64,000 nucleotides of DNA from an uncultured Planctomycetales bacterium (GCA_964468745.1 CAYXVY010000140.1:5945-69944); one strand, 5' to 3'. Counted from the first letter of the stretch, positions 12,383 through 64,000 are shown. Numbers and translations are program-made. The notes: generated by a model from the sequence alone, not told the origin.

Positions 12383-14284
12383 CTACGTGGCCTGCTCCGC
12401 CTCCAGCCGCCGGAAGTGCGCCATGATCTGCGCGACGCACGCATCCACGTCCGCCTTGTCCGTGCGCACGACGAGATCAGCCTTCTCCGGCGCCTCGTAT
12501 GGCGCGTCGATCCCCGTCACCGACTTCACCTGCCCAGCCCGCGCCTTCTTGTAGATCCCCTTCGGATCGCGCTCCTCACAGACCGCGAGCGGGCAGTCGA
12601 CGAACACCTCGACGAACTCCCCCTGCCGCAGCCCGCCCCGCACGCGGTCGCGGTCCGCCTTCATCGGCGAAATTAGTGCGACAAGCACGATGAGGCCGGA
12701 GTCGCCGAACAGCTTCGCCACCTCGCCCACGCGACGCACGTTCTCCGCCCTGTCTTCCTCGCTGAACCCGAGGTTCGCATTGAGGCCGTGCCGCAGATTG
12801 TCTCCGTCGAGCAGGTACGTCTGGTATCCCGCGTCGAACAGCCGCCGCTCCAGCGCGACGGCGAGCGTGGACTTCCCCGACCCCGAGAGACCCGTGAACC
12901 AGAGGACGCGCCCATGATGGCCGGTGCGCCGCGCGCGCTCGTCCCGCGAGACCTGGCCCGACACGAACGAGATGTTATGGCTCTTGACGCCCGACAACTC
13001 CGAGCGCAGGTCCTTCGTCGCGGCCGTCGAGATGATCCCTCCCCCCTCGATCCGCGCCCCCGCGTGCAGCACGAAACGGCCGAGCTGCGGCACCCCGCCG
13101 AAGTCGTCGATCGCGATCGGCCGCTGCGTCTCGATCGTGACCTCCGCGATCTGGTTGCGCGCCACCGACTGCGCCTCGACGGCACCGAGCGTCGCAACGT
13201 CCACCACCTGGTGGATCTTCACGACGCGGCAGATGACTTCCTGCGACGTGATCTTCAGCAGGTACTCCTTGCCGGGCATGAGGTCCTGTTTCCCCAGCCA
13301 GAACAGGCGCGCGTCGAATCGGTCCGCCTCGACCGGCGCGTTCTCGAGATGCGACGCGATCTGCCCGCGCTCGACGAAGAGCTGCGCGTCGAGCGTGATC
13401 CCGACCGAGTCGCCCGCGTGCGCCTCCGTCACCGGCGGCGCGCTCCAGCGCTCGATCGTCTTGACGAAGCCGGTCTTGTTCCACGGCGAGAACACGAGCT
13501 GATCCCCGACGCGAAGCGTGCCGGACTCGATGCGGCCGGCGAAGATGCGCGTCGTTTCGTTCTGGCGGTAGACGTCCTGGATCGGGAAGCGCAGCGGGCC
13601 GTCGGTGATGGGGACGCGCGACTTGAAGCCGTGCATCGCCTCGGCCACCGTCGGGCCGGTGTACCACGGCATGTCCGTCGCGCGCGCGACGACGTTCGCG
13701 CCCGCCTTCGCGGAGATCGGAATGAACACCGATTTGCCCGCACCGGTTGCCTTCAGGTAGGCCCCGTATTCCTTCTCGATGTCGCGGAAGGTCTGCTCCG
13801 ACCACCCGACGAGATCCATCTTGTTGACGAGCACGGCGACCTGGTGGAGCCCGAGCAGGCGCAGCAGCAGCGCGTGACGGCGCGACTGCTCGCGGATCCC
13901 CTCGCGCGCGTCGACGAGGACGAGCGCGGCGTCGGCCGTCGAAGCCCCCGTGATCATGTTCTTCAGGAATTCTTCGTGCCCGGGCGCGTCGATGATGACG
14001 AACGGGCGTCCGTTGACGTGCATCCAGACGTGCGCGGCGTCGATCGTGATCCCCTGGTCGCGCTCGGCCTGCAGCGCGTCGAGGGCGAACGCGAACTCGA
14101 ATTCGAGACCGCGCTTCTCGGAGATCTTCCGGATCTGTTCGAGCTTCCCTTCCGGGAGCGAACCGGTGTCGTGCATGAGCCGGCCGACGAACGTCGACTT
14201 GCCGTGGTCGACATGGCCGAGCATCACCACGCGGACCGGTGCGGTCGTGGGGGTGACGGCCTTTTCTTTGGTAGTCACGGGCAT
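12383..14284 (-). CDS. cysNC: Bifunctional sulfate adenylyltransferase subunit 1 (GTPase, CysN) fused to adenylylsulfate (APS) kinase (CysC); NodQ-like
   Basis: N-terminal GTPase motifs ([23 protein letters not shown]) of CysN/EF-Tu-like. C-terminal APS kinase ([39 protein letters not shown]-loop kinase signature). 633 aa. Confidence 0.9.
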
Positions 14285-14557: not shown

Positions 14558-15367
14558 TTACATGTATCCGGAGGTGCGAAGACGCTCGAACGCGTCCTCC
14601 GATTCCTGGTCCTGTGCTCGGCCCGATCTCTCGCTCGTCTTCGTGCGCCGCAGCTCCTCGACGATCTCCGCGACGCTCGTGGCGGTGGACTCGATCATGC
14701 CGGTGCACGGCGCGCATCCGAGGCTGCGGTAGCGGCGTCCGTCCTTCGCGTAGTAGAGGTCGATGATCGGGATCGACTCGCGCTGGATGTACTCCCACAC
14801 GTTGAGTTCGGTCCAGTGGAGCAGCGGATGAATGCGTATGTGCGTGCCGGCCGGGAATTCGGTCTGGTACTGGTCCCAGAATTCCGGGGGCGCGTCGCCG
14901 AAGTTCCACGTGAGGTTCTTGTCGCGCGGCGAGAAGTAGCGCTCCTTCGCGCGCGTGCTCTCCTCGTCGCGGCGGATGCCGAGGAGCAGGCCGTGATACC
15001 CCTTGAGTTCGAGGACCTGCTTGAGGCCCTCCGTCTTGAGCGAGGAGCAGCAGACGACGCGGCCGAGGGTGTGGTTCATCCCGCCGGCGAGGGCGGCGAC
15101 GTTCTTGCCGACCACGAGGTCGAGCCCCAGCTCCTTCGCGACGCGGTCGCGGTACTCGATCATCGACGGGATTTTGTAGGTCGTGTCGACGTGGATGACG
15201 GGGAACGGGACGGCGCCGAAGAATGCCTTGCGGATGAGCCAGAGCAGGACGGTCGAATCCTTGCCGATCGACCAGAGGCACCCGAGGTTTTTCAGCTTCG
15301 CGCGCGCCTCGCGGATGATGTAGACGCTCTGCGCTTCGAGGGCGTCCAAGGGGTCGCGGTGAGCCAT
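14558..15367 (-). CDS. cysD: Sulfate adenylyltransferase subunit 2 (CysD; PAPS reductase-like ATP sulfurylase small subunit)
   Basis: ORF 14558..15367(-). [12 protein letters not shown] (PP-loop), LGIRRDEE, and overall CysD architecture. The ATG is preceded by TTGAGA-n17-TATAAT-n11. Confidence 0.9.
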
Positions 15368-24778: not shown

Positions 24779-25945
24779 CTACCGTCTGAGCCGCAGCAGA
24801 GCTCGCGTTGTTTCCCCCTCATGGACTGCTTCGCTGAGGATCTCCATGCGGAGTCCAATCGACGCTCCGAGTTTCTTGAAGGCATTCAGATTCCACTCGA
24901 CAAGTGCGCGCGTTCCGCGGGTTTCAGAGACATCCTTCGCACAAAATATATCGGCGAGAATGCGACCTCCATCTCCCATGCACCTCGTGGCGTCAGTTAG
25001 GAGTCCGCGAGACTCATGCGGATAGGTGTGCGTTAGGACGCTCATGAAGAGCACAAAATCGAAGGGTCCTCCAACAATTTCGAGTGGCAGACTGGCGTCC
25101 ATATTCCGCGTGAAGGAAAATGTGGAGCGACTGTAGCGCTGTCTGCAGAAAGCCACAGGCTTTTCCGCGATATCTGTACCGCAGTAGCGCCCCGTCGAAT
25201 CCAAGAAGCTGTGTAGTGGTCGTGTTAACAGCCCTGTTCCGCAACCCACATCGAGTACGCGGGAATTGCGCGCCAATCCAAATTCCATCAACATGCGCAA
25301 CTTGTCGTCGCCCAGTGTGACGAACTGTTCCTCGGACGGAACTCCGACGACCGACCAGTAGTCGCGAGTAAAGTCGGCGTTTTCCCAGACAGTGGCATAT
25401 TCGCCAAAATCGCCAGGCCGCGCTCCAGCGATTTCAACTGTGATCGGTGAGACTCTTGAGCCCCGATCCTTGAACCAGGTAATGTTTTCGTGAACTAAGT
25501 CAAATTCGAGCGTACACAGACTTGGAGTGGCAGGCGCCTGAACTGTCGCGCGAACTAAGACCTCTGCGCCGGAATCAATATCGGTTGGAAAATCGGTCCG
25601 AATCCCGTCATAGACAAGTACTTTCCCGTCTTGTCGCAGCCAATGGTATGCCAGCCGAACGGCATTTGGTTTGTTTCCAGCAGGCCACCGATGGGGAGTA
25701 GCGTTACGAACGCGCACGGGCACTTGAACAATCTCTCCTTCGTGCAGCTTGGCAGGTGCCTCTAGTACGTGGATTTGGGCGCGGTATGCCACGCTGGGCA
25801 TGCTGTCCAGTGGCAAGGTGGGGTCGCCCAACTGCAGTTCTCCTTTTTCTGAGTCCGACTTAGTATCTGAGTTTTGCAGCAGATGCAAGAAGCGATTCGC
25901 CGAGAGCCTTCGAATCTCGCGAGCTATTTCTTCGCCGGTTGACAT
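24779..25945 (-). CDS. Class I SAM-dependent methyltransferase (C-terminal) with a ~190-aa N-terminal domain of unknown function
   Basis: VLDVGCGTGLL (SAM-binding motif I) and downstream motifs (FDFVLFMSVLTH). Noticeably AT-richer than the background. Confidence 0.7.
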   Translation of the reverse strand: MSTGEEIAREIRRLSANRFLHLLQNSDTKSDSEKGELQLGDPTLPLDSMPSVAYRAQIHVLEAPAKLHEGEIVQVPVRVRNATPHRWPAGNKPNAVRLAYHWLRQDGKVLVYDGIRTDFPTDIDSGAEVLVRATVQAPATPSLCTLEFDLVHENITWFKDRGSRVSPITVEIAGARPGDFGEYATVWENADFTRDYWSVVGVPSEEQFVTLGDDKLRMLMEFGLARNSRVLDVGCGTGLLTRPLHSFLDSTGRYCGTDIAEKPVAFCRQRYSRSTFSFTRNMDASLPLEIVGGPFDFVLFMSVLTHTYPHESRGLLTDATRCMGDGGRILADIFCAKDVSETRGTRALVEWNLNAFKKLGASIGLRMEILSEAVHEGETTRALLRLRR

Positions 25946-25982
25946 AGGATCGACGCGCCCGATAAGCTCCGCTGGCGAACGA

Positions 25983-27293
25983 ATGGATAACCACTTGCAT
26001 CGCGTTGAGATTCAGCACGTTGCCCCGACCACCGTTGATCCCTTGGTGCTCTGGGGGGCAGGGCTGAACTCGCCCACGCTTGGTACGAGCGGCAGTTACT
26101 CAATTGGAATTGCAGGTTGGGTATTACCGCGCGCGGGACAAAGGGCTAAAGTCCAGTTCACTTGTGGACGCCGAATCCTCAGTGAACTAGAAATTGACCG
26201 GTGGCGACCTGACGTGCTGAAGCACTTCCCCGATATTCCCGGTGCCGAGCATTGCGGATTCTACGGGTCGCTACGGACGGTAGAACTCCCTAGTCAGTTC
26301 GATATCCAGATCTCCATCAAGTTGGAAGGCCACGGATTGCTTCCCATGACGACCATTCGCGGCTGTCGCAATTCCATCGTTCCTGCGCCGGTGGAATCAC
26401 TGCGTCCAATCTTTATTACATCGTTAGGGCGCTGCGGCTCGACCTATCTCGCCCTGCTGCTAAAAAACCATCCCGAGATAGTAGTTGCTGGCCCCTTCCC
26501 GTACGAAAACCACGTACTCCCTTACTGGGTTTCAGTTTTCGAGACCCTCTCAGCTCCACAGTCTTTCTTAAAGCAGCTCGCCTCGCCCCTGCGTGGACAC
26601 TATTGGTGGCTGGGCGATGCGCGCGACTCAGTAGAGACCTACCTTGAGCGCTTTCCCAACGTAGATCTCGTTGGTGGCGACGCGGTTGACGCAGCCGCAA
26701 CGTTCTGTCGTGCTCGCGTTTACGCGTACGATGCACAACTTGCAGCACGCGTCGGCAAGCCGAAGGCTGTTTATTTCGCCGAGAAGTTACCTCCGTCCGG
26801 CCCCAACCCCCTCGCGGAACAACTGTTCCCCACGACGCGTGAAATCGTACTTCTTCGCGATCCCCGAGACATTATCGCGTCCGTGCTCGCGTTCAATCGA
26901 AAGCGGGGTTTCGCATCGTTTAGCCGCGAACTCGTTCAGAGCGATCTAGAGTATGTGGCTTCCATTCGACATCAGTGGCTCGCGCTGGCCGTCGGATGGC
27001 GGAACCGAAAGACAAATGCGATAGTTGTACGTTACGAAGATCTCATGGAGAAACGTGACGAGACCGTCCGAAGCGTCTTTGGTGCATTGAATCTGTCAGC
27101 TTCTGATGACGTGCTTCGACACGTGGTGGAAGCCTCCGCACAGGAAGATGTCGCTCTTCAAGAAGCTCATATGACATCAACAAGCACTGAAAGTTCGATT
27201 GGCAGATGGAAGCGGGAGCTTCCAAGTGAGCTCCAGAAAGCCTGCAGGGACACCCTAGGTGACGCGCTGGAGGAGTTCGGTTACGCAGTGTAA
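25983..27293 (+). CDS. Sulfotransferase family protein (PAPS-dependent)
   Basis: 5'-PSB motif ITSLGRCGSTYLALLL and 3'-PB motif LLRDPRDIIASV. Track ORF 25749..27293 overlaps the convergent methyltransferase gene by ~200 bp. Starting at the internal Met (MDNHLH..., 25983) removes the overlap and the low-complexity N-terminus. Confidence 0.75.
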   Translation: MDNHLHRVEIQHVAPTTVDPLVLWGAGLNSPTLGTSGSYSIGIAGWVLPRAGQRAKVQFTCGRRILSELEIDRWRPDVLKHFPDIPGAEHCGFYGSLRTVELPSQFDIQISIKLEGHGLLPMTTIRGCRNSIVPAPVESLRPIFITSLGRCGSTYLALLLKNHPEIVVAGPFPYENHVLPYWVSVFETLSAPQSFLKQLASPLRGHYWWLGDARDSVETYLERFPNVDLVGGDAVDAAATFCRARVYAYDAQLAARVGKPKAVYFAEKLPPSGPNPLAEQLFPTTREIVLLRDPRDIIASVLAFNRKRGFASFSRELVQSDLEYVASIRHQWLALAVGWRNRKTNAIVVRYEDLMEKRDETVRSVFGALNLSASDDVLRHVVEASAQEDVALQEAHMTSTSTESSIGRWKRELPSELQKACRDTLGDALEEFGYAV

Positions 27294-51719: not shown

Positions 51720-52073
51720 ATGCCCACATACGACTACGGGTGTGCCGCGTGCGGGCACGTCTTCGAGGTGTTTGAGAAGATCAACGATGGAGGAACGAAG
51801 GCCTGTCTGAAGTGCGGCAAGAGGCGCGCCAAGCGGCGCATCGGCGCCGGCGCGGGCGTGATCTTCAAGGGAAGCGGCTTCTACGCCACCGACTCCAAGG
51901 AGTCCTCGAAGGCCCCCTCCACCGGCGGGGACAAGAAGAAGACGACGCGAAAGACGACCGAGACCAAGACCGAAACAAAGACCGAGACTAAGCCCGAGAC
52001 GAAGACCGAGGCCAAGTCCGAGGCAAAGACCGAGTCGAAACCCGAGAAAACAGAAAAGACGGAGAAACGATGA
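51720..52073 (+). CDS. FmdB-family zinc-ribbon protein with Lys/Thr/Glu-rich repetitive C-terminal tail
   Basis: MPTYDYGCAACGHVFEV...CLKCG (CxxC...CxxC), then KKKTTRKTTETKTETKTETKPETKTEAKSEAKTESKPEKTEKTEKR. TATAAT at 51701-51706 sits 13 nt upstream of the ATG (CCCTATAATCGCCCCC module) with TTGCCG -35. Confidence 0.6.
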   Translation: MPTYDYGCAACGHVFEVFEKINDGGTKACLKCGKRRAKRRIGAGAGVIFKGSGFYATDSKESSKAPSTGGDKKKTTRKTTETKTETKTETKPETKTEAKSEAKTESKPEKTEKTEKR

Positions 52074-53503
52074 GAGACCTGAAAGGGGACTGGCGCGATC
52101 TCTTCAATGGGTTCATGCTGGCGCTCGACCTGCGCAAGATGTTCCTAGGACTTTGCGCGATCCTCTTCACCGTTTTCGGCCCGCTCGGGTTTACATGCTG
52201 GATCGCCAACAAGATCGACGCCGGCGCCGTGAACGCCCCGCAGACGTTCGTCCTCGGCGAGATCTGGGGGACGATTTGCCAGTCGTGGCACGTCATCTAC
52301 AGCGGCACGTCCGGTCATCCCGCGGACTGGAAGCTCTACATCCCCTATAGCCTCCTGTTTGTCACGTCGGTGCTTGCGATCTGGGCCTATTTCGGCGGCG
52401 CGATCGCGCGCAACGCGGCGTACGAGATCGGACGCGACGGCGAGCGCATCGAGACGGCCCGCGCGCTCGGATTCGCCGGTAAGAAGTTCTGGTCCTTCTT
52501 CATGTCGCCGTGGATCTGCGTCATCGGCGCCCTCTTCTTCTTCCTCTGCAACTTCGCGGGGGGCGCGCTCGGCCGGGTCCTGGACCTGGCGTGGATCGGC
52601 GGTCCCATCGTGGCGCTGCTCCTGCCGCTGGCGCTCCTCTCCGGATTCATCATGACGCTCATCTCCGTGGGCACCGTCGCGGGATTCCCGCTCTTCGCCC
52701 CCGCGGTGGCGGCCGAGGGAACCGACGCGTTCGACGCCGTGAGCCGCGGCTTCAGCTACGTGTACTCGCGGCCGTGGCACTATCTGTGGTACCAGGTCGC
52801 GGGGTCGCTGTACGGAGTCGTCTGCTCATCGTTCGTCATCCTCTTCGCGATCCTGATGTGCCATTTCGGACTGCAGGCGGGGGCGGCGGGCTTCGACACC
52901 TTTGCCGTCGAGGAAACGCCCCAAGCTCCGGCGAGTCCGGCGGACAACGCGACGCCGGCGGAGCGCGACAAGTTCAAGCAGGCGATGGACGCCTGGCACA
53001 AGCGCCGCATCGAGCAGCCAAAGGACTTCGAGGAGAAGAACGACCGGTTCCAGGACATCGCGAACACGGCGTGGGCGAAGATCCTCAGTCGCGAACACGC
53101 CACGCAGCAGTACGGATGGTGCCCGTCGGATCTTGCGAACAATCTCGACCCGTACGGCCGCCTGATGAACCTCGCGAATTGCATCGTGAAGCCGAACCAC
53201 ATGATGCACGTGGACGCGCTCAACACGAAATTCCACAAGGTCGCGGCGTGGCTCGTCATGGCGTGGCTCGTGATCACGCTCGGGCTCGCGCTGGGCTACA
53301 TCCCCAGCTACGTGATCTCCCACCAGACGATCATCTACTTCCTGCTGCGCAAGAAGGTGGACGGGATCGAGATGAACGAAGTCTACGAGGAGCCGGAGGA
53401 GGGCCGGGGCGGAGAGCCCGTTGCCGCGTCCGACAAGCCCGCGCCGCCGCCCGCAGCCGACGCGAAACCGGCGCCGCCGCCGGAGCAGAAACCGCCTGCG
53501 TAG
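52070..53503 (+). CDS. Hypothetical integral membrane protein (translationally coupled to the FmdB-like gene)
   Basis: 477 aa with several TM helices and a Pro/Ala/Lys-rich C-terminus. ATGA overlap with the upstream stop. Confidence 0.5.
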   Translation: MRDLKGDWRDLFNGFMLALDLRKMFLGLCAILFTVFGPLGFTCWIANKIDAGAVNAPQTFVLGEIWGTICQSWHVIYSGTSGHPADWKLYIPYSLLFVTSVLAIWAYFGGAIARNAAYEIGRDGERIETARALGFAGKKFWSFFMSPWICVIGALFFFLCNFAGGALGRVLDLAWIGGPIVALLLPLALLSGFIMTLISVGTVAGFPLFAPAVAAEGTDAFDAVSRGFSYVYSRPWHYLWYQVAGSLYGVVCSSFVILFAILMCHFGLQAGAAGFDTFAVEETPQAPASPADNATPAERDKFKQAMDAWHKRRIEQPKDFEEKNDRFQDIANTAWAKILSREHATQQYGWCPSDLANNLDPYGRLMNLANCIVKPNHMMHVDALNTKFHKVAAWLVMAWLVITLGLALGYIPSYVISHQTIIYFLLRKKVDGIEMNEVYEEPEEGRGGEPVAASDKPAPPPAADAKPAPPPEQKPPA

Positions 53504-56005: not shown

Positions 56006-58588
56006 ATGCGTCGATCGAAGCTCGCCCGCCGGAGCCTCCTCGCCCTCCTCTATATAGTGTGGGGCGCGGCGGTCGCCTGGTTCTCGATCCTCCCCGCCGC
56101 CCTGCGCGCCGGCTTCCTGCACGCGACGATCGAAAGGAAGGTGGGCGAAGCCCTCGGTTGCGCCGTGCGCCTTGGGCAGATCGACTTTCCGAATGGGCGG
56201 GAGCTGACGGTCCGAGGAACCACGATCACGCCATCCATGCCGGGGCTCGGCGCCGTCGAAATCGAATCGGTCCGCGTCTCCTTTGCAGGGCTCGCCCCGC
56301 TGTCGGAGCTGAGCGAGATCGCGATCGACGGCGTGAAGGCGCGCGTCGATCTGGCCGTCGATCACCTCAAACCGACGGCCGCGCCGCCGGGCGCCCCGCC
56401 TTCCACCCCCATCCGGCTTGCCGTGCCGCGAACGCTGCCGACGATCCGCGCAACGCGCGTGTCGATCGACGGCACCGTCGGGGGCGAGGCCGTCTCCCTG
56501 CGGGAGCTCGACGTGCGGCTCGAGCGCGACGGCTCATTCGCCGGCACCGGCAGGCTCGCGACGTCGTCCGATCCCGAAATCGACGTCCGCGGTTCGATCA
56601 CGGATGGGCGAGTGCGGTTCGACCGCCTGAAGATAGGCACGCTCTCCGCGAAGGCCGGCCTCGCAACGCCCGGGGACAAGGACATGACGGGCAACTTCGC
56701 TATAGACTCGTTCAAAATACCGCGCGCGCTGCAGTCCGTCCTCGAAGGCGTCACGGGAGTGAAGGCGCGCGGCCTGGTGACGACGAGTCTCGCATTTACG
56801 CTGGACGGCACGCGCCTCGCATCGCTCGAGTTCGAAGGCGAGCTCGTGAACTACGAGGTCGAGAAGTCTGGCGTGCGCGTGGCGCACAAGAAGGACCGCA
56901 CACGCGTGAAGCTCTCGGTGACAACGCACCCCGCGGGAGGCTGGGCGGCGACGGGCACGCTCAGCGACGTCGAGGTGCAGCTCGGCGGCGGGTTCGTCCT
57001 GCACTTCCCGCAGGCTGCATACGATGCGCACATCGACGGCGGCCGATCCGCCGGCACGATCCGCTTCGCCGACGCCTTCTGCTCGCAGGGCGAGTTCGAG
57101 TCGAGCCGCACGGAAGGGGACCTCGCGTTCGACGTGACGCGCGACGCCGAGAATCGGGTCTTCACCGGATCGACGCGCCTGACGCTGCGTCACGCGGAGA
57201 TGCTCAGGGGCGAGATCTACCAGGAAGTGGACAAGGATCACGTGCTCGAGCTGCTCCTTGCGGGCCGTTTCGACATCGAGGCCGGCAACTACGAATTCAG
57301 GGGGACCGGCGCGTCGCTCGGAGGCGTCGGGAAGATCTCGCTGGACGGAAGCGTGCGCCGCGGCGGGAACGGATTCGTCTACGACGTCGGTATCGAGACC
57401 GATGACCTGTCCGCGAAGGAGCTCGCCGCGCGTCTCGCCGCGATGTACTCGATCGAGGATATCACGATGGCAGGGCGCATCCGAGCGAAGGCGCGCCTGA
57501 CGGGGGAGGCGGGGGAGTACGCGCTCGACGGTCGCGCGACGCTCATCGACGTCGCGATCCGGAAGGGCCCGCTCGCGATTGCGAAGCTCGAGGGGGAGAT
57601 CCCGCTGATGATCTCGAAGCGTCGCGATTTCGACCGCACGGAGCGGGGCTGGATCTCGTTCGAGGACCTCGTGCCGATGAAGGGGATCTCGCTCGGCAAG
57701 CGCCGGCTCGAGGCGGTCGCGCGCACGAATTCGCTGCGGTTCCCCGACACGATATCGTTCGATCTTTTCGGCGGGCGCGCCACGCTCGGTGAGATTGCGA
57801 TCTGGGACATCGCGAACAGCCCGCACTACGACTTGAAGTGCGGCGCGACGGACATCGACCTGACCCTCCTCGTCAAGTCGTTCGGAAGCGACCGCCGCTT
57901 GAAGGGGAGCGCCTCCATCGAACACGGCCCGGTCCTGATCTCGATGCAGCAGGTCACGATCCTGAAGCCCCTGAGGTTGTCGATTTTCGAGGGGATGGCC
58001 GAGTTCCAGCACATCCGCGTCCTCAAGCCGGCGGACCCGGTGCACCGCGCGTACCAGATGGGATTCGTGGCGGGCGGGCTGCGGCTGCGCGACATCTGCC
58101 GCACGATGACGGAGTTCGGCGCCATCGACGGCGTTGCGGACGCGCAGGGGATGATCGAGCTGCACACGAGCGGCCTACCAAACTGGTTCCAGATCCAGAT
58201 GCGCACGGTAAAACGCGACGGCGTGGAGCAGATGTGCGACCTGAAGGCGATCCGGGCGCTCGCGCGGGTCATGAGCGGGGAGGACATCGCGGCGCGGCTG
58301 CAGGAGCTGCGGACCGACAAGCTGTACTACGACAAGTTCGGGTTCTTCGCGGCGATGGACGTGGACTTCTCGCTCTACCTGCGCGGCTTCTGGTGGCAGC
58401 CGCGGGGATCGAGCACCTTCACGGAGGTCCCGATCGAGGATCTGAAAGTGGGCAAGCGGCCGAAGACGCCGGGGCTCGAGTTCCTCATGGTGGGCACGGG
58501 GCGTCAGCAGGTAAACATGAACATCGCGAACCCGGGCGTCGGGATCGACTTCAACGATCTGCTCGACAGATTCAAGAAAGTTAAATGA
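56006..58588 (+). CDS. Large AsmA-family / YdbH-like envelope protein with N-terminal membrane anchor
   Basis: 860 aa. N-terminal TM (LLALLYIVWGAAVAWFSIL), then a long beta-rich periplasmic region. Followed by a YdbL-like gene, as in the ydbH-ynbE-ydbL arrangement. Confidence 0.5.
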   Translation: MRRSKLARRSLLALLYIVWGAAVAWFSILPAALRAGFLHATIERKVGEALGCAVRLGQIDFPNGRELTVRGTTITPSMPGLGAVEIESVRVSFAGLAPLSELSEIAIDGVKARVDLAVDHLKPTAAPPGAPPSTPIRLAVPRTLPTIRATRVSIDGTVGGEAVSLRELDVRLERDGSFAGTGRLATSSDPEIDVRGSITDGRVRFDRLKIGTLSAKAGLATPGDKDMTGNFAIDSFKIPRALQSVLEGVTGVKARGLVTTSLAFTLDGTRLASLEFEGELVNYEVEKSGVRVAHKKDRTRVKLSVTTHPAGGWAATGTLSDVEVQLGGGFVLHFPQAAYDAHIDGGRSAGTIRFADAFCSQGEFESSRTEGDLAFDVTRDAENRVFTGSTRLTLRHAEMLRGEIYQEVDKDHVLELLLAGRFDIEAGNYEFRGTGASLGGVGKISLDGSVRRGGNGFVYDVGIETDDLSAKELAARLAAMYSIEDITMAGRIRAKARLTGEAGEYALDGRATLIDVAIRKGPLAIAKLEGEIPLMISKRRDFDRTERGWISFEDLVPMKGISLGKRRLEAVARTNSLRFPDTISFDLFGGRATLGEIAIWDIANSPHYDLKCGATDIDLTLLVKSFGSDRRLKGSASIEHGPVLISMQQVTILKPLRLSIFEGMAEFQHIRVLKPADPVHRAYQMGFVAGGLRLRDICRTMTEFGAIDGVADAQGMIELHTSGLPNWFQIQMRTVKRDGVEQMCDLKAIRALARVMSGEDIAARLQELRTDKLYYDKFGFFAAMDVDFSLYLRGFWWQPRGSSTFTEVPIEDLKVGKRPKTPGLEFLMVGTGRQQVNMNIANPGVGIDFNDLLDRFKKVK

Positions 58589-58700
58589 TGAGTTCTGGGT
58601 TTTGAGTCGTGAGTCGGACCGGCCTCTGATCACTCATAACTCAAAACTCATAACTCGCTGCGTCGTGTATACTCAGACCCCACTTATCTAGGAGAGCGTC

Positions 58701-59303
58701 ATGTTGCGTAGCCTTGCGTTGTCCGCTGCGATCGCTTTTGGCGCAGCCTGTATTCCCGTGACCGTCAACCTCACGTTCGCCTTCCCGCCCAAGGAGATGG
58801 AGCAGAAGCTCATCGACATGGAGAAGAAGGTGCGCGAGGTGGAGGACAAGCCGAAGAGCCCCGCGGCCGCGTTCGATCCCGTGGCGGATCAAGACCAGGG
58901 GGTAAACATCACCGTCGAGACCCCTGCCATCAAGGAGATCAACGAGCGTCGCAAGAAGCGCGCGGGCGAACTCAAGGGACACTTCGAGGCCGGGCGCGTC
59001 GGCGAAGGGAACGACGCCCGAGTCACCGAGCGCGAGACGGGCGATCTCGCCGGCAAGGACAAGGCCGCGTTCAAGAAGCTCGTGAATGCGGAGAACGACG
59101 ACCGCGAGAATCTCGTCAAGGAGATCCTGAAGGCCAACAAGCTCGCCGACGATCAGCTTGGCAACGTTCGCGGTATCTATGCCCGGGCACTGCGCAAGGT
59201 CGCCGCGGTCGGCTGGTGGTTCCAGACGGCCAAAGGGACCTGGCTCAAGAAAACCGCGGAGCACCAGAAAAAACTCGAGAAAGATGAGGAAATCGACCAG
59301 TAA
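58701..59303 (+). CDS. YdbL-like (DUF1318) periplasmic protein, possibly with an N-terminal YnbE-like lipoprotein segment
   Basis: C-terminal half GRVGEGNDARVTERE...LVNAENDDRENLVKEILKAN...GIYARALRKVAAVGWWFQTAKGTWLKK matches the YdbL pattern (G.VGE...N..R...Y...A...G.W.Q...G.W.K). N-terminus has a signal/lipobox-like GAAC and IPVTVNLTF. Good SD (AGGAGA). Confidence 0.5.
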   Translation: MLRSLALSAAIAFGAACIPVTVNLTFAFPPKEMEQKLIDMEKKVREVEDKPKSPAAAFDPVADQDQGVNITVETPAIKEINERRKKRAGELKGHFEAGRVGEGNDARVTERETGDLAGKDKAAFKKLVNAENDDRENLVKEILKANKLADDQLGNVRGIYARALRKVAAVGWWFQTAKGTWLKKTAEHQKKLEKDEEIDQ

Positions 59304-59348: not shown

Positions 59349-60080
59349 ATGAGGGCTCTGGCTGTCGGTCTGGCTCTCGCGCTCGCCCTTCCCGCATTCG
59401 CGGACGAGGTCGTTCTCCGAAACGGTTCGCGCTTTGAAGGCAAGGTCAAGGAGAACGGCGACCAGGTCGTGGTCGTCATGGACTTCGGCGAGATCGCCTT
59501 CAACCGCAGCGATGTGGTGAAGATCATTCCGGGGAAGTCGTCGATCCAGGAATTCGACAGCAAGGTTACGGAGCTCAAGAGCGACGAGATCGAGGGGCGC
59601 CTCAAGCTCGCGATGTGGGCGAAGAATCGCGACTTGAACAACCGCGCGAAGGCGCTCCTGGAGGAGATTCTCGTCATCAATCCGGATCATGCGGGCGCGC
59701 GCGCCGAGCTCGGGTACACGAAGGTTGAGGGTCGCTGGCTCACGGCGGACGAAGCGAAGGCCGCGCAGGGGCTCGTCAAGTTCCGCGGCGCGTGGGTGAA
59801 GCAGTCGGAGGCCGAGGCGGTGCTCCAGCGCGAGGCCGACCGTTCGGTGGAGGCGGCGCGCGACATGGAACTCGTCACGGCGCAGCGCAGGTTGCTCGAG
59901 GCCGAGGCGGACTACGTCAAGGCGAAGGCCGAAGGCGAGCGCGTGCGCACCGAGATCGAACGCGTGAAGCAGGAGTCGGCGCGGCGCTGGGTTCCGATCA
60001 TGGTCTGGTACGTCAACGACGCGCGTATTCCCGCGGCGCACCACGGCTGCGCGAGCAAGACACCCGTACTGAAGAAATAG
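59349..60080 (+). CDS. Secreted hypothetical protein
   Basis: Signal peptide MRALAVGLALALALPAFA, then a coiled-coil-rich C-terminus. Confidence 0.45.
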   Translation: MRALAVGLALALALPAFADEVVLRNGSRFEGKVKENGDQVVVVMDFGEIAFNRSDVVKIIPGKSSIQEFDSKVTELKSDEIEGRLKLAMWAKNRDLNNRAKALLEEILVINPDHAGARAELGYTKVEGRWLTADEAKAAQGLVKFRGAWVKQSEAEAVLQREADRSVEAARDMELVTAQRRLLEAEADYVKAKAEGERVRTEIERVKQESARRWVPIMVWYVNDARIPAAHHGCASKTPVLKK

Positions 60081-60122
60081 CGGATTGTGTTCTGGGGGCG
60101 GTTTTTGTCAGGAGGCGGACTC

Positions 60123-60989
60123 ATGCGGACTCTGGCAGCAATAGTGGCGCTGACGCTCGGCGGCGCGGCGCTCGCGCAAGACAAGCCCGACGAAGCCAAG
60201 AAGCAGGCGGAGAAGGATGCCGAGACGAAGGCCAAGGCCACGCTCGACAATTTCAGAAACGCGACCAAGAAGGCCAAGGTGAGCGACGATTTCATCGCCG
60301 CCCTCAACGGCCTCGGCGACGAGCCGCATGCCCTCATCCTCGCGGAGCTCAAGATCTGGCTGGGCAAGCCCGCACCGGAGGTCCGCCAGGAGGCCGCCGA
60401 CGAGATCGGCAAGTTCAAGGGGGACGAGAAGGCCGCCCAGACCCTCATCAACTGCGCGAAGGGCGATAAGATGCTCGACGTGCAGGTGAAGTGCCTGCTC
60501 GAGGTCGGCAAGATCGGCTGCCGTAAGATCGCGAAGGACCTGCACGGGTTCTGGCAGCACAAGGAGCTCGACATCGCGCGCGAGGCGCTCGACTCCACCG
60601 GCGCCTGCAAGGCGAAGGACTCGATCGAGCCGCTCATCCGCTTCCTCGAGGAGAAGGAGGCGGAGAAGGCTCAGCTCGCTCAGCAACAGCAACAGCAGCA
60701 GTCCGGTGGCAGCGGCGGCGGCAGCAGCAGCGGCGGCGGCAGCTACGGACCGACGACCCCGGGTCCCGTCACCACGAACCAGAACAACGACCTCGCCGAC
60801 AAGATCAAGCGCGTGGACGAGCTCATCCCGCGCGCGGTGCAGGCCCTGCAGGACATCAGCGGCGAGAAGTTCAAGATGGCCAAGGAGTGGAAGAAGTGGT
60901 GGGGCAAGAGCAAGCAGTTCTTCAAGGAAGAGGGCGAAGAACCCAAGAAGGAAGAAAAGAAAGAAGAGAAAAAGGAAGATAAGAAATAG
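60123..60989 (+). CDS. Secreted HEAT/ARM-like repeat protein with Gln/Gly/Ser linker and Lys/Glu-rich C-terminal tail (paralog A of a tandem family)
   Basis: SD AGGAGG 7 nt before ATG 60123. Signal peptide. Conserved ...DDFIAALNGLGDEPHALILAELKIWLGKP...EEIGKFKGDEKAA.... Tail ...KKEEKKEEKKEDKK. Confidence 0.6.
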   Translation: MRTLAAIVALTLGGAALAQDKPDEAKKQAEKDAETKAKATLDNFRNATKKAKVSDDFIAALNGLGDEPHALILAELKIWLGKPAPEVRQEAADEIGKFKGDEKAAQTLINCAKGDKMLDVQVKCLLEVGKIGCRKIAKDLHGFWQHKELDIAREALDSTGACKAKDSIEPLIRFLEEKEAEKAQLAQQQQQQQSGGSGGGSSSGGGSYGPTTPGPVTTNQNNDLADKIKRVDELIPRAVQALQDISGEKFKMAKEWKKWWGKSKQFFKEEGEEPKKEEKKEEKKEDKK

Positions 60990-61010
60990 GCGGGATCTCT
61001 GGGGAGGACT

Positions 61011-61856
61011 ATGACGATGCGGATGCTTGTGGCGCTGCTGCTTCTGAGCGGGCTGACCTACGCGCAGGATGACCCGAAGAAGCAGGCCGAGAAGGAAGCC
61101 GAGGCGAAGGCCAAGGAGAAGATCGACGCCTTCAAGGCGACGGTCAAGAAGGCCAAGACGAACGACGACTTCATCGGGGCCATCGACGGCCTCGGCGACA
61201 TGCAGCACCCCCTCATCCTGGCGGAGCTGAAGGCCTGGCTCGGCAAGCCCACGCCGGAGATCCGGCAGGCCGCGGCCGAGGAGATCGGCAAGTTCAAGGG
61301 GGACGAGAAGGCCGCCTCCGCGCTCTGCATGATGGCCAAGAACGACAAGATCCCCGACGTCGCGATCAAGTGCCTCCTCGAGATGGGCAAGATCGCATGC
61401 AAGAAGACCGCCAGGGAGCTCGTCGGCTTCTTCGCGCGCAAGGAGTGGGAGGTCGCCCGCGAGGCGGTCGACTCCTGCGCCGCGATCAAGAGCAAGACGG
61501 TCATCTCGCCCCTGATCACCTTCCTCGAGGACCTCGAGACGGAGAAGGAGCGCGTCAAGCAGGCCCAGAATTCGCAGCAGGCGGGCGGCCAGGGAGGCCA
61601 GCTGCCGGGCGGCGGCGGGCAGCTCCCCGGCGGCCAGGCCGGCGGCACGAACTCGCAGACCGACCTGCAGGACCGCCAGAAGCGCGTCGACGAGCTCATC
61701 CCGCGCGTCGTTCAGGCTCTCAAGGACATCACCGATGAGAAGCTGAACACCGCCAAGGAATGGCGCAAGTACGAGATGAAGAACCGCGGGTTCTTCAAGG
61801 ACGACGAGGAGAAGAAGGACGACAAGAAGGAAGAAAAGAAGGACGAGAAGAAGTAG
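61011..61856 (+). CDS. Paralog B of the secreted Lys/Glu-tailed family
   Basis: About 55-60% identical by eye to paralog A (DDFIGAIDGLGDMQHPLILAELKAWLGKP...). Tail KKDDKKEEKKDEKK. Confidence 0.6.
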   Translation: MTMRMLVALLLLSGLTYAQDDPKKQAEKEAEAKAKEKIDAFKATVKKAKTNDDFIGAIDGLGDMQHPLILAELKAWLGKPTPEIRQAAAEEIGKFKGDEKAASALCMMAKNDKIPDVAIKCLLEMGKIACKKTARELVGFFARKEWEVAREAVDSCAAIKSKTVISPLITFLEDLETEKERVKQAQNSQQAGGQGGQLPGGGGQLPGGQAGGTNSQTDLQDRQKRVDELIPRVVQALKDITDEKLNTAKEWRKYEMKNRGFFKDDEEKKDDKKEEKKDEKK

Positions 61857-62098
61857 TCGAAACGGAGATCAACACGCCCCCGGTTCCACCGAGCCGGGGG
61901 CTTTTTTGTTGGCCGAGCAAACAGAGAAGTAGGAAAACACCGAGAAAGCCGAGTCATCCGAGAGGCGATCTTGGATGGGACGGGAGAACTCCCCAAGTCC
62001 TCTCGGTTTTCTCGGATCTCTCGGTGTTGATCCGCTCGGGTTCCTCTTTCTCCCTCTATTCTCTCACGCCGCAGTTTACAGCCTCTCGGAGGTGCCTC

Positions 62099-62881
62099 AT
62101 GCGGCGAGTCTGGATCGTGGTCGCCACGGTGTGCGTCGCATCGAGCGCCTGGGCGCAACAGGACGCGAAGGCCGAGGAGAAGGCGGCCGAGGAACGCGCG
62201 AAGGCGCGCCTCGTCGAGTTCCGCAAGAGCCTTCGCAAGTGTCAGGAAACCGACCACTTCGTCGACGCGCTCGCCGGACTCGCCAACGAGCCGCACGCCC
62301 TCATCCTCGCCGAGCTCAAGCTCTGGCTCGCCAAGCCGCAGTATGAAATCCGGCTCAAGGCGGCCGAGGAGATCTCGAAGTTCACCGGCGACGGCAAGGC
62401 TTCCGCAACGCTCATCGCCGCCGCCGTCACGGAAAAGGAGACCGGCGTCGCCACCGCCTATCTTGACCGCCTCCTCGAGATCCGCCATCGCGCGTCCGTA
62501 CGGAATCTCGCGCCCCTCTTCAACCACAGGGAGAAGATCGTCGCCCAGAAGGCGACCGAGATCGCAGGCGCGTTCCGAACGAAGGACGCCGTCGAGCTTC
62601 TCATCGGCCAGCTGTTCAAGCTCGAGGGGGACCGCAAGAAGCACACCACGCAGGACTCCAGCGGCATCAACAACGGACCGGACTTCGGCACTTCGGCCTA
62701 CGGCCAGCAGGCGGGCGCCATGGAGTCAGCGGCCAAGCGCATCGAGGACATGATCACGTGCACGCGCCAGGCGCTGCTCACCCTCACGAAGCAGCCGTAC
62801 ATGAGCTCGATGCAATACAAGGAATGGTGGGCGAAGGCCAAGACGACGTGGAAGGAACCTGATCCGGAGGATGAAGACTAA
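62099..62881 (+). CDS. Paralog C of the secreted family (no poly-Lys tail)
   Basis: Signal peptide, HFVDALAGLANEPHALILAELKLWLAKP. Ends ...KEPDPEDED. Confidence 0.55.
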   Translation: MRRVWIVVATVCVASSAWAQQDAKAEEKAAEERAKARLVEFRKSLRKCQETDHFVDALAGLANEPHALILAELKLWLAKPQYEIRLKAAEEISKFTGDGKASATLIAAAVTEKETGVATAYLDRLLEIRHRASVRNLAPLFNHREKIVAQKATEIAGAFRTKDAVELLIGQLFKLEGDRKKHTTQDSSGINNGPDFGTSAYGQQAGAMESAAKRIEDMITCTRQALLTLTKQPYMSSMQYKEWWAKAKTTWKEPDPEDED

Positions 62882-63076
62882 ATGAAACTTTCACTTGCGA
62901 TTGCAGTAGCGCTCTTCGTCGGCCTCGCGCAGGTCGACGCCCACGGTCAGTGATGCGGCAGTTCGGGCGGGGGCGGATCCGCTCCCGCGGCGCCGACCGG
63001 CGGCGGCAGCCCGACCGGCGGGGGCGGCGGCGAGAAGAGCGGGGGCTCCAAGTCCAGCGGCAGCTCCGGCGGGCAG

Positions 63077-63712
63077 ATGTACGACGCGCTCATCGTCCCG
63101 GAGGAGTGCATCACGCTCCGGTACTACCCGGGCGAGATCGACGTCGCGGTCGTCAAGCCCGCGCTCCAGCGCATCAAGAACGTCGCCAAGGTAGACGTCG
63201 ACGCGTCGCTGCGGCTGATCCTCGTCACCTGGAAGGGCAAGTGCAAGGGGATCCACCAGCTCGAGAGCGCGGCAGCCGCCGCGGGCGTGCCGGCGTACCT
63301 CCTCAACCACGCGCATGTCACCGCGACGCTCAAGACGAATCGCGGCTCGAACCTCAACACCCTCTGGTACGGACTGAATGACGTCGCGGGCGTGAAGGGG
63401 TCGATCATCACAGGCGCGCAAGTCGAGATCCACTGCGACCTGCAGGATCTCTCGATCACGGGCATCCGCAAGGCGGCAAAGGAAGCCAACGTGGAAGTCG
63501 AATTCACGTCGCATCATTGGATCGAGCCCACGCTCTCCGGCGGCGACGTCGAACGCGCCTGTCGCGAGGTCGGACAGCTGAAAGGCGTGGTCCTCGCACG
63601 GGTGACGAACGAGAAGCTCGGCTTCTGGGCAATCAAGTCCGTGAAGGACGATCAGCTCAAGGCCGCCGTCGAGCGCTCCGGCTCAACCTGCACCGCGCTC
63701 GAGCGGAAGTAG
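63077..63712 (+). CDS. Hypothetical protein with three ~60-aa internal repeats; possibly the mature part of a secreted protein whose signal peptide (62882-62950) is separated by an in-frame TGA
   Basis: Track ORF 63077..63712. Upstream in the same frame reads MKLSLAIAVALFVGLAQVDAHGQ-TGA-CGSSGGGGSAPAAPTGGGSPTGGGGGEKSGGSKSSGSSGGQ-MYDAL..., with no other stop. Confidence 0.4.
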   Translation: MYDALIVPEECITLRYYPGEIDVAVVKPALQRIKNVAKVDVDASLRLILVTWKGKCKGIHQLESAAAAAGVPAYLLNHAHVTATLKTNRGSNLNTLWYGLNDVAGVKGSIITGAQVEIHCDLQDLSITGIRKAAKEANVEVEFTSHHWIEPTLSGGDVERACREVGQLKGVVLARVTNEKLGFWAIKSVKDDQLKAAVERSGSTCTALERK

Positions 63713-63777
63713 TCGTTCTGCGCACCGATTCCCGCCCAAGCGGTGTCATAGTATAAAGCGGGTTTCGGAGGGGTGCA

Positions 63778-64000
63778 TGGCACGGATCGGGTGTATCGTC
63801 TCTCTTCTTCTGTGCGCGTCGACGGCTTATGCGCAGTCGCCGGAGGAGAAGGCGGCCGAGGAGAAAGCCAAGGCGCGTATCGCCGAGTTCAAGAAGTCGC
63901 TCGGCAAGTGCCGCGCGGCCGAAGATTACGTCGCCGCGCTCGACGGCCTGGGCAGCGAGCCGCACCCCTTGATCCTCAAGGAGTTGCTGATCTGGCTCGC
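63778..64000 (+). CDS. Paralog D of the secreted family (5' part; continues beyond the window)
   Basis: MARIGCIVSLLLCASTAYAQSPEEKAAEEKAKARIAEFKKSLGKC...YVAALDGLGSEPHPLILKELLIWL. Confidence 0.55.

Follow-up and report, generated by a model that had tools for sequence, protein, structure and literature searches.

Our analysis shows that the end of the window, by which we mean the whole 64,000-nucleotide stretch of DNA analyzed here from an uncultured Planctomycetales bacterium, encodes at least four tandem paralogs on the same strand (here, A to D), all of them small exported HEAT-repeat proteins. The array is a lineage-specific tandem expansion in which the subtypes A/B and C/D were each duplicated, and its members belong to a real but uncharacterized family of small Sec-exported alpha-solenoid proteins of 230 to 290 amino acids (aa). 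A 243-aa secreted protein (p243; 59349..60080, plus strand), encoded directly upstream of paralog A, is a near-constant neighbor of the HEAT family. We infer that the paralogs are periplasmic adaptors that work with p243 and that have grown here from one or two copies to at least four, a reading that we regard as plausible but somewhat short of probable.

Paralog A (60123..60989, plus strand, 288 aa) consists of a signal peptide (residues 1-18), a charged N-terminal helix (22-49), four HEAT hairpins (54-194), a disordered Gln/Gly/Ser linker (195-218), a Trp-rich helical hairpin (219-266), and a Lys/Glu tail (267-288). Paralog B (61017..61856, plus strand) has the same type of architecture, including the Lys/Glu tail, and measures 279 aa when counted from 61017. 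Of its two candidate ATG codons, at 61011 and 61017, the latter is most likely the start because the NCBI protein P0001 begins there (MRML) and because, by sequence reading, a GGAGG is located 9 nt upstream. An intrinsic-terminator-like hairpin (61876..61911, plus strand), with an 11-bp stem of which 9 pairs are G-C and a T run behind it, closes the predicted A-B transcription unit. After a gap of about 190 nt follows paralog C (62099..62881, plus strand, 260 aa), which represents the second subtype and has an acidic C terminus in place of the Lys/Glu tail. The 5' part of paralog D (63777..64000, plus strand) contributes 74 codons to the window. In locus L036, an independent assembly of short Logan contigs, D reaches at least 242 aa, its C terminus not being recovered there; L036 and L037 show 0 mismatches with the window over 1902 bases. 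The original prediction of a tandem array of at least four paralogs is thus upheld by four same-strand open reading frames whose paralogy is evident by BLASTP. Its gene starts at 60123 and 62099 also stand, whereas the ATG of D lies at 63777 rather than 63778 and that of B most likely at 61017 rather than 61011.

In BLASTP comparisons, A and B share 55-57% identity (E = 1e-78), A and C share 34-35% (E = 2e-41), and the window fragment of D is 42% identical to A (E = 7e-17). D is C-like, with 55-58% identity between the two. The paralogs fall into two subtypes, A/B and C/D, with about 56% identity within and 30-38% between them. In the phylogenetic tree, C forms a long branch within the window clade, and the duplication that gave rise to A and B predates the split from the organisms carrying P0002/P0003 and P0006/P0010.

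Between C and D lies an unrelated gene (62882..63712, plus strand), whose ATG abuts the stop codon of C. Such an insertion had been predicted, but with a start at 63077; the start is probably at 62882. The three repeats that the prediction ascribed to its product found no convincing support. The gene encodes, in this order, a signal peptide, an in-frame TGA (62951-62953), a Cys with a Gly/Ser linker, and a 211-aa body weakly similar to MerP/HMA proteins (MerP, E = 1.6e-4, under the cutoff). The frame is unchanged and GC3 is coding-like on either side of the TGA, which is seen in three assemblies (the window and two others). Considered as a possible SECIS element of a selenoprotein gene, a 9-bp hairpin that begins 13 nt past this TGA has a fold no better than those of shuffled sequences (z = 0.26). 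A global recoding of TGA was rejected because TGA is the stop codon of 14 of the 38 genes in the window.

Judged by a rule based on basic residues, a hydrophobic core, and cleavage-site residues, all four paralogs show a Sec-type signal peptide pattern, with one or two basic residues, a 9-residue core of hydropathy 2.8-3.0, and, after the core, the cleavage-site residues ALA|Q, TYA|Q, AWA|Q, or AYA|Q. The feature is family-wide, as a hydrophobic segment is present at the N terminus in 110 of the 114 small representatives of the family. The Pfam model HEAT_2 (cutoff, 27.7 bits) matches A with 39.1 bits and B with 54.4 bits (E = 1.6e-14 for B). C remains under this cutoff (21.0 bits, E = 4e-4) and aligns over its full length with A and B. 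The fold is an alpha-solenoid of stacked antiparallel helix pairs with four PBS-type HEAT hairpins, and structure prediction models the Trp-rich C-terminal helical hairpin with confidence. Signal peptides and HEAT-like repeats, both read from the sequence in the original prediction, are accordingly confirmed. The Gly/Ser/Gln linkers and Lys/Glu tails that it described are likewise found in A and B (C has a weaker linker), but the term "polycationic" was wrong for the tails, which contain 10-11 Lys and Arg residues against 10 Asp and Glu residues and are charge-balanced, probably disordered appendages and not polycation anchors.

The designed alphaRep proteins derive from natural PBS-lyase-type HEAT repeats (HEAT_2, PF13646; HEAT_PBS, PF03130). 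Compared with plain PBS-HEAT proteins, the paralogs add a signal peptide, the charged N-terminal helix, a Gly-rich linker, and the Trp-rich C-terminal hairpin with the motif ITGE-x-F...EW-x2-WW; this added module is conserved throughout the family and lies outside any Pfam or NCBIfam model. A search for the family gave 5634 matches at E <= 1e-3; at E < 1e-30, it amounts to 91 clusters (50% identity). Most of the top matches are 230-290 aa long and span the whole profile. Its sole Pfam match is the generic HEAT_2. None of the cassette genes has a specific match in NCBIfam, no match to the PADLOC defense models was obtained, and a scan of GTDB representative genomes with a closer family alignment found no relative. 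Literature searches returned nothing relevant on a cassette of periplasmic HEAT and two-component proteins, nor on "PTPDL." In an Rfam search of the region from 58 to 64 kb, a sub-threshold match to RsmY in the GGA-rich DNA encoding the tail of B was taken as chance.

We compared the gene neighborhoods of about 30 related loci. Among the 23 distinct loci that were assessable, p243 lies directly upstream of the HEAT genes in 22; L004 is a window-clade locus without p243. The predicted structure of p243 comprises a signal peptide, a small five-stranded beta-barrel (18-61), TPR-like helices (65-121), two beta-hairpins, and a single helix of 60 residues (152-213), followed by a disordered end that is Cys-rich in orthologs. 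Because the HEAT, TPR, and small-barrel folds are generic, fold searches yielded no functional lead. A second HEAT paralog comes next in 15 loci, and a histidine kinase is found downstream in 13 (sister clade). The gene order in the sister clade is p243, HEAT1, HEAT2, a HAMP-HisKA kinase, and an NtrC-type sigma-54 regulator, and the last two constitute a two-component system according to their Pfam domains (HAMP-HisKA-HATPase_c and REC-Sigma54_activat-HTH_8). The spacing is operon-like in L001, with gaps of 12-41 bp and an 8-bp overlap of the kinase and regulator genes, and the kinase has two transmembrane segments enclosing a periplasmic loop of about 80 aa. This order, the tight spacing, and the small periplasmic part of the kinase suggest that the p243-HEAT module may be an extracytoplasmic accessory or co-sensor of the adjoining kinase in the sister clade. 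A precedent exists in Escherichia coli, where QseG is a periplasmic accessory lipoprotein for the QseE kinase and the sigma-54-dependent regulator QseF (PMC6075780). The sister-clade loci resemble it in having exported accessory genes in an apparent operon with a kinase of small periplasmic part and an NtrC-type activator. However, the accessory proteins here are of the HEAT and TPR/barrel types and number two or three, the likeness drawn here being one of operon logic, and no kinase adjoins the module in the window clade (the window, which ends within D, and L004, L005, L032, and L038).

The window clade also differs in copy number, with one HEAT gene in L004 and L005, two in L032, and at least four in the window, and in its upstream genes. 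A DUF1318 (YdbL-family) protein with an N-terminal lipobox (Cys17) is encoded at 58701..59303 (plus strand). It matches PF07027 with E values of 1e-8 and 5e-9 (36-37 bits against a cutoff of 27), and an alignment of three orthologs shows little or no variation in the segment CIPVTVNLTFAFPPKEMEQKLIDME. Upstream of it lies p860 (56006..58588, plus strand), an 860-aa protein with one N-terminal transmembrane anchor, which among the loci compared is confined to the window clade. By sequence, p860 is possibly AsmA-like, with matches to DUF748 (E = 0.014, and 3e-4 in an ortholog) and YhdP (E = 0.095), all under the cutoffs. The arrangement recalls that in E. coli, in which YdbL modulates assembly of the AsmA-like YdbH-YnbE phospholipid bridge and a large N-terminally anchored protein likewise precedes DUF1318, in the order ydbH-(ynbE)-ydbL (PMC13464000, PMC11126948). 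By this analogy, the paralogs could assist in the periplasm as accessory factors to an AsmA-like bridge that carries lipids between membranes, with p860 and the DUF1318 lipoprotein corresponding to YdbH-YnbE-YdbL. In favor of such a role is the order p860, DUF1318, p243, HEAT, which is kept in the window, L005, and L032 and, minus p243, in L004. Nevertheless, we consider it improbable, given that hhalign detects no significant similarity between p860 and E. coli YdbH (probability, 1.3%) and that the YnbE model (PF13617) finds nothing (E <= 10) in the first 60 residues of three orthologs, while the E. coli YnbE control scores 3e-16; the resemblance to YnbE is limited to a short motif (PVTVNLTF versus PITINMNV). 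In the sister clade, which is much larger than the window clade, p243 and HEAT genes occur in the absence of p860 and DUF1318. The two systems also differ in that the DUF1318 protein of the window is a 200-aa lipoprotein whereas YdbL is a 108-aa soluble protein and in that the E. coli ydbH locus has no HEAT or p243 genes.

A different partner was proposed in the original prediction, namely, that the paralogs are surface proteins holding, electrostatically and through their Lys/Glu tails, the sulfated, polyanionic glycan of a neighboring locus. The window does contain a locus with the capacity for sulfated-glycan synthesis, which includes CysN/CysC (12386-14284, minus strand), CysD (14561-15367, minus strand), a sulfotransferase (25749-27290), an ABC-2 exporter, many glycosyltransferases, a flippase, and a GDP-mannose dehydratase. 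The paralogs are exported, and in L004 a single GT2-methyltransferase gene lies about 4 kb upstream of the module. However, the glycan genes extend only to about 51.7 kb, leaving about 8.4 kb and six unrelated genes before paralog A, and five of the six relatives' loci with gene annotation (L001, L005, L006, L032, and L033) have no polysaccharide genes; this count rests on those six loci, since the others were scored with profiles of the cassette genes, which are blind to such genes. Related genomes carry one or two copies, with no polysaccharide link other than the L004 gene in these annotated loci, an outcome of the kind that the original prediction had itself named as evidence against it. 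The mature proteins, like the tails, are near neutral (basic/acidic residues, 50/49 in A, 51/47 in B, and 37/37 in C), only 2 of 114 family representatives have a comparable tail, and charge counts and the tail census revealed neither a net positive charge nor a basic patch conserved in the family. Glycan binding of this kind is therefore very improbable. It is more conceivable, although still unlikely, that the paralogs serve the envelope in a structural or chaperone-like capacity without a role in signaling, the gene order being inherited synteny and the array a result of dosage or neutral duplication. The folds are generic, and the flanking p503 and MoxR-DUF58-DUF4129 genes recur among the loci as well, indicating strong lineage-wide synteny; common descent of the related metagenomic lineages, and not function, may account for part of the p243-HEAT adjacency. 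FlaL1 of the Treponema denticola flagellar sheath (PDB 9PIN; bioRxiv 10.64898/2026.02.04.703737) is an example of a periplasmic HEAT protein with a purely structural role. It resembles the paralogs in being a small HEAT-repeat protein, acts as a binding adaptor in the periplasm, as the paralogs would, and gives a weak profile match (E = 4.6e-4), but the match is confined to generic repeats (profile positions 39-144), and the gene-annotated loci and scanned portions of the window showed no flagellar genes. Against a purely structural role, the p243-HEAT adjacency outlasts rearrangements that alter all of its surroundings, both upstream (p860/DUF1318, DUF4129, or a 984-aa gene) and downstream (a kinase, a 392-aa protein, or genes on the opposite strand), and the paralogs have diverged to 30-57% identity with the whole architecture retained, which argues for selection. 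Finally, E/F-type lyase-like or cofactor-binding HEAT enzymes, as exemplified by CpcE/CpcF or deoxyhypusine hydroxylase, can be given hardly any weight: the 12.4 bits obtained with the NCBIfam CpcE model fall short of its cutoff of 330, the paralogs are exported with signal peptides, and no genes for phycobiliproteins or comparable substrates occur in the gene-annotated loci or the scanned window parts. In structure comparisons, consensus-designed alphaRep proteins rank highest, so the resemblance is to the generic repeat.

Returning to the adaptor reading, the HEAT proteins would mediate protein-protein contacts in the periplasm jointly with p243. In the window clade, the module would have lost its adjacent kinase and come to stand behind the AsmA-like/DUF1318 pair; this loss and setting, together with a copy number that varies from one to at least four, suggest diversified binding partners in envelope homeostasis. 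A broader and more speculative possibility, which we hold to be rather doubtful, is that p243 and the HEAT proteins form an undescribed periplasmic sensing or adaptor module of a Planctomycetota-like lineage, placed in either a sigma-54 two-component or an AsmA-like/YdbL-like setting, with the expansion providing a repertoire of binding specificities by which the envelope would be monitored. At present, the findings define a well-delimited conserved cassette and correct the glycan-binding reading. If the proposed role is true, the family would illustrate how HEAT-repeat proteins can act as accessory sensors or adaptors beyond the cytoplasm, and the cassette would provide an entry point to two systems of a little-studied lineage, namely, an uncharacterized sigma-54 two-component system and a possible AsmA-like/YdbL-like envelope system.

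In its final 4 kb, the window carries four same-strand open reading frames whose products align end to end (BLASTP E values of 7e-17 to 1e-78), so the tandem array of the original prediction is borne out. Paralog A lies at 60123-60989, B at 61017-61856 (with the MRML start of the NCBI protein; another ATG lies at 61011), and C at 62099-62881, while D, whose start is 63777 rather than the predicted 63778, reaches past the window end. By BLASTP, A and B are 55-57% identical (E of 1e-78), A and C 34-35% (E of 2e-41), and D and A 42% across 80 residues (E of 7e-17); a search of the window found no copies beyond A to D. Two independent Logan assemblies (L036 and L037) match 62099-64000 with 0 mismatches and lengthen D to 242 amino acids. 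D resembles C (55-58% identity), whereas identity between A/B and C/D is 30-38%; therefore, the array is made up of two subtypes, both of them duplicated. Downstream of B comes a strong terminator-like hairpin (61876-61901) with a T run.

The gene inserted between C and D (62882-63712) has a Shine-Dalgarno-like GAGGA and an ATG that directly adjoins the C stop codon, and it encodes a signal peptide (MKLSLAIAVALFVGLAQVDAHGQ). Next comes an in-frame TGA (62951-62953), identical in two further assemblies, after which a Cys and a Gly/Ser linker continue in the same frame. A 9-bp hairpin (62967-62988) begins 13 nt past the TGA and folds no better than shuffled sequences. The gene may encode a selenoprotein (Sec-Cys), or it may be a pseudogene or a split gene.

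The Pfam HEAT_2 matches of A (9e-10) and B (1.6e-14) exceed the cutoff, and that of C (4e-4) falls below it; an NCBIfam search of the paralogs gave no specific match. In an AF2 model of A built from 19 family sequences (pLDDT of 84, pTM of 0.76), a disordered signal peptide (residues 1-19) is followed by a long charged helix (residues 22-49), four helix pairs (residues 54-194), a disordered Gly-rich linker (residues ~195-218), a very confidently predicted helical hairpin with an EW-x2-WW motif (residues 219-266), and a disordered C-terminal Lys/Glu tail. All four paralog N termini fit the signal-peptidase I pattern in a rule-based check, in agreement with the secretion originally proposed.

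A word-indexed search yielded 18 close relatives, with HEAT_2 as the sole precomputed Pfam domain. An exhaustive profile search retrieved 5634 proteins at an E value of ≤1e-3 and 91 clusters (50% identity) at an E value of <1e-30, and its best matches are mostly 230-290 amino acids long and span the whole profile. Among 114 small family representatives, 110 have an N-terminal hydrophobic segment, again by rule, and 89 have the C-terminal Trp motif; just 2 have a Lys/Glu tail. In a neighbor-joining tree, the family divides into an H1 and an H2 branch; A, B, and C share one H1 subclade, and the A/B duplication is older than the split from the organisms with the relatives P0002/P0003 and P0006/P0010.

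In all, 38 loci were gathered, one being the Escherichia coli ydbH reference and several duplicating each other or the window. Thirty distinct loci, the window included, hold a family member, and their open reading frames were scored using profiles of the window's proteins. A gene for p243, a secreted 243-amino-acid protein, lies immediately upstream of the family member in 22; it is missing only in L004, and the sequence of the other 7 loci begins too far downstream to show it. In the sister clade, the gene order is p243, H1, H2, kinase, regulator, with H2 found in 15 loci and the kinase in 13. Locus L001 has intergenic gaps of 23, 41, and 12 bp and an 8-bp overlap between the genes for kinase and regulator. 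The kinase (HAMP-HisKA-HATPase_c) has two transmembrane segments and a loop of ~80 amino acids, and the regulator is of the REC-Sigma54_activat-HTH_8 type. In four loci of this clade (L001, L006, L023, and L033), a MoxR AAA+/DUF58/DUF4129 triad lies directly upstream of p243; in L001, an additional 984-amino-acid protein without a Pfam match is encoded between the two.

In the window's own clade, the order is p860 (an N-terminally anchored protein), DUF1318 lipoprotein, p243, HEAT gene(s) in the window (and its counterpart L009), L005, and L032; L004 keeps this order without p243. The HEAT gene is single in L004 and L005, present twice in L032, and in at least four copies in the window, and no kinase adjoins the module in the sequence covered for this clade, which for the window's array runs as far as D. 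After the HEAT gene(s), L005 (6182-7357) and L032 (4355-5485) encode secreted proteins of ~380-390 amino acids that are 58% identical, have no Pfam match, and lack a counterpart in the window.

Six genes separate the paralogs from a polysaccharide locus: p503 (52070-53503), DUF401, DUF2330, p860 (56006-58588), the DUF1318 lipoprotein (58701-59303), and p243 (59349-60080). The product of p503, a multi-pass membrane protein of ~470 amino acids without a Pfam match, is encoded again 2-9 kb upstream of p243-HEAT in both clades (L001, L004, L010, L013, L024, L029, and L031), which may reflect lineage synteny or membership in the p243-HEAT system. A small Zn-ribbon gene precedes it in L004, and short open reading frames of similar size do so in L010, L013, and L024. 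Orthologs of p243 (P0171-P0175, L038, and L039) carry a Cys-rich motif at the C terminus (RCCCNQKR, GCTCNQKR, VPCCCPK, or GCCPPGCGCGHH); the window's p243 has just HHGC, and the region is modeled as disordered.

The DUF1318 protein is a member of the YdbL family; in E. coli, YdbL modulates the YdbH-YnbE lipid bridge (PMC13464000, PMC11126948). No relationship between p860 and YdbH was detectable, all AsmA-clan matches of p860 are subthreshold (DUF748/YhdP weak), and no YnbE domain was found in the upstream genes; the analogy is a lead rather than evidence of membership. The pair of an 860-amino-acid anchored protein and a 200-amino-acid DUF1318 lipoprotein (56006-59303 in the window) is shared with L004, L005, and L032, and across three orthologs the N-terminal 25 residues of the mature lipoprotein (CIPVTVNLTFAFPPKEMEQKLIDME) vary little or not at all. 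The pair may be distantly analogous to ydbH-ynbE-ydbL, with the YnbE role fused to YdbL.

The paralogs had also been proposed to bind a sulfated glycan electrostatically. The locus invoked is present: 9454-51699 is a large polysaccharide locus with sulfate activation genes of its own (a CysN/CysC fusion at 12386-14284 and CysD at 14561-15367) and a sulfotransferase (25749-27290), and it also encodes at least eight glycosyltransferases, a flippase, an ABC-2 exporter, and a Bac_transf priming enzyme; its 24-28 kb part has a G+C content of 0.58-0.59 versus about 0.65. Binding itself is very improbable, because the tails are balanced (10-11 basic versus 10 acidic residues, the mature proteins being near neutral) and rare in the family, and because synteny is against it. 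Of the six relatives' loci with gene annotation, five are devoid of polysaccharide genes, and the sixth, L004, has a single GT2-methyltransferase gene; the other loci were scored against cassette profiles only, which would miss such genes. The DNA for B's tail (61743-61833, AAGGA repeats) gives an RsmY match that, at 22.8 bits, falls short of the gathering score (57) and most likely arises by chance from the GGA-rich codons. One alternative, fairly unlikely, is that the paralogs are purely structural and their synteny is inherited; a role as an accessory of the AsmA-like system, next to which the array lies, is doubtful to a slightly greater degree, and a lyase-like enzyme is extremely improbable.

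Among HEAT-repeat proteins, which are a known kind, FlaL1 is a precedent for export (bioRxiv 10.64898/2026.02.04.703737). Neither Pfam nor NCBIfam has a dedicated model for the present family, for its C-terminal module, or for the p243-HEAT cassette, and limited literature searches turned up no account of them. The architecture, the family, and the synteny are what the analysis shows; the location, partners, and role of the paralogs are inferred. The best-supported reading, a tentative one, is that they serve as periplasmic adaptors together with p243. The p243-HEAT module would then be coupled to a sigma-54 two-component system in the sister clade; in the window's clade it stands beside a possibly AsmA-like system and has been enlarged through tandem duplication.
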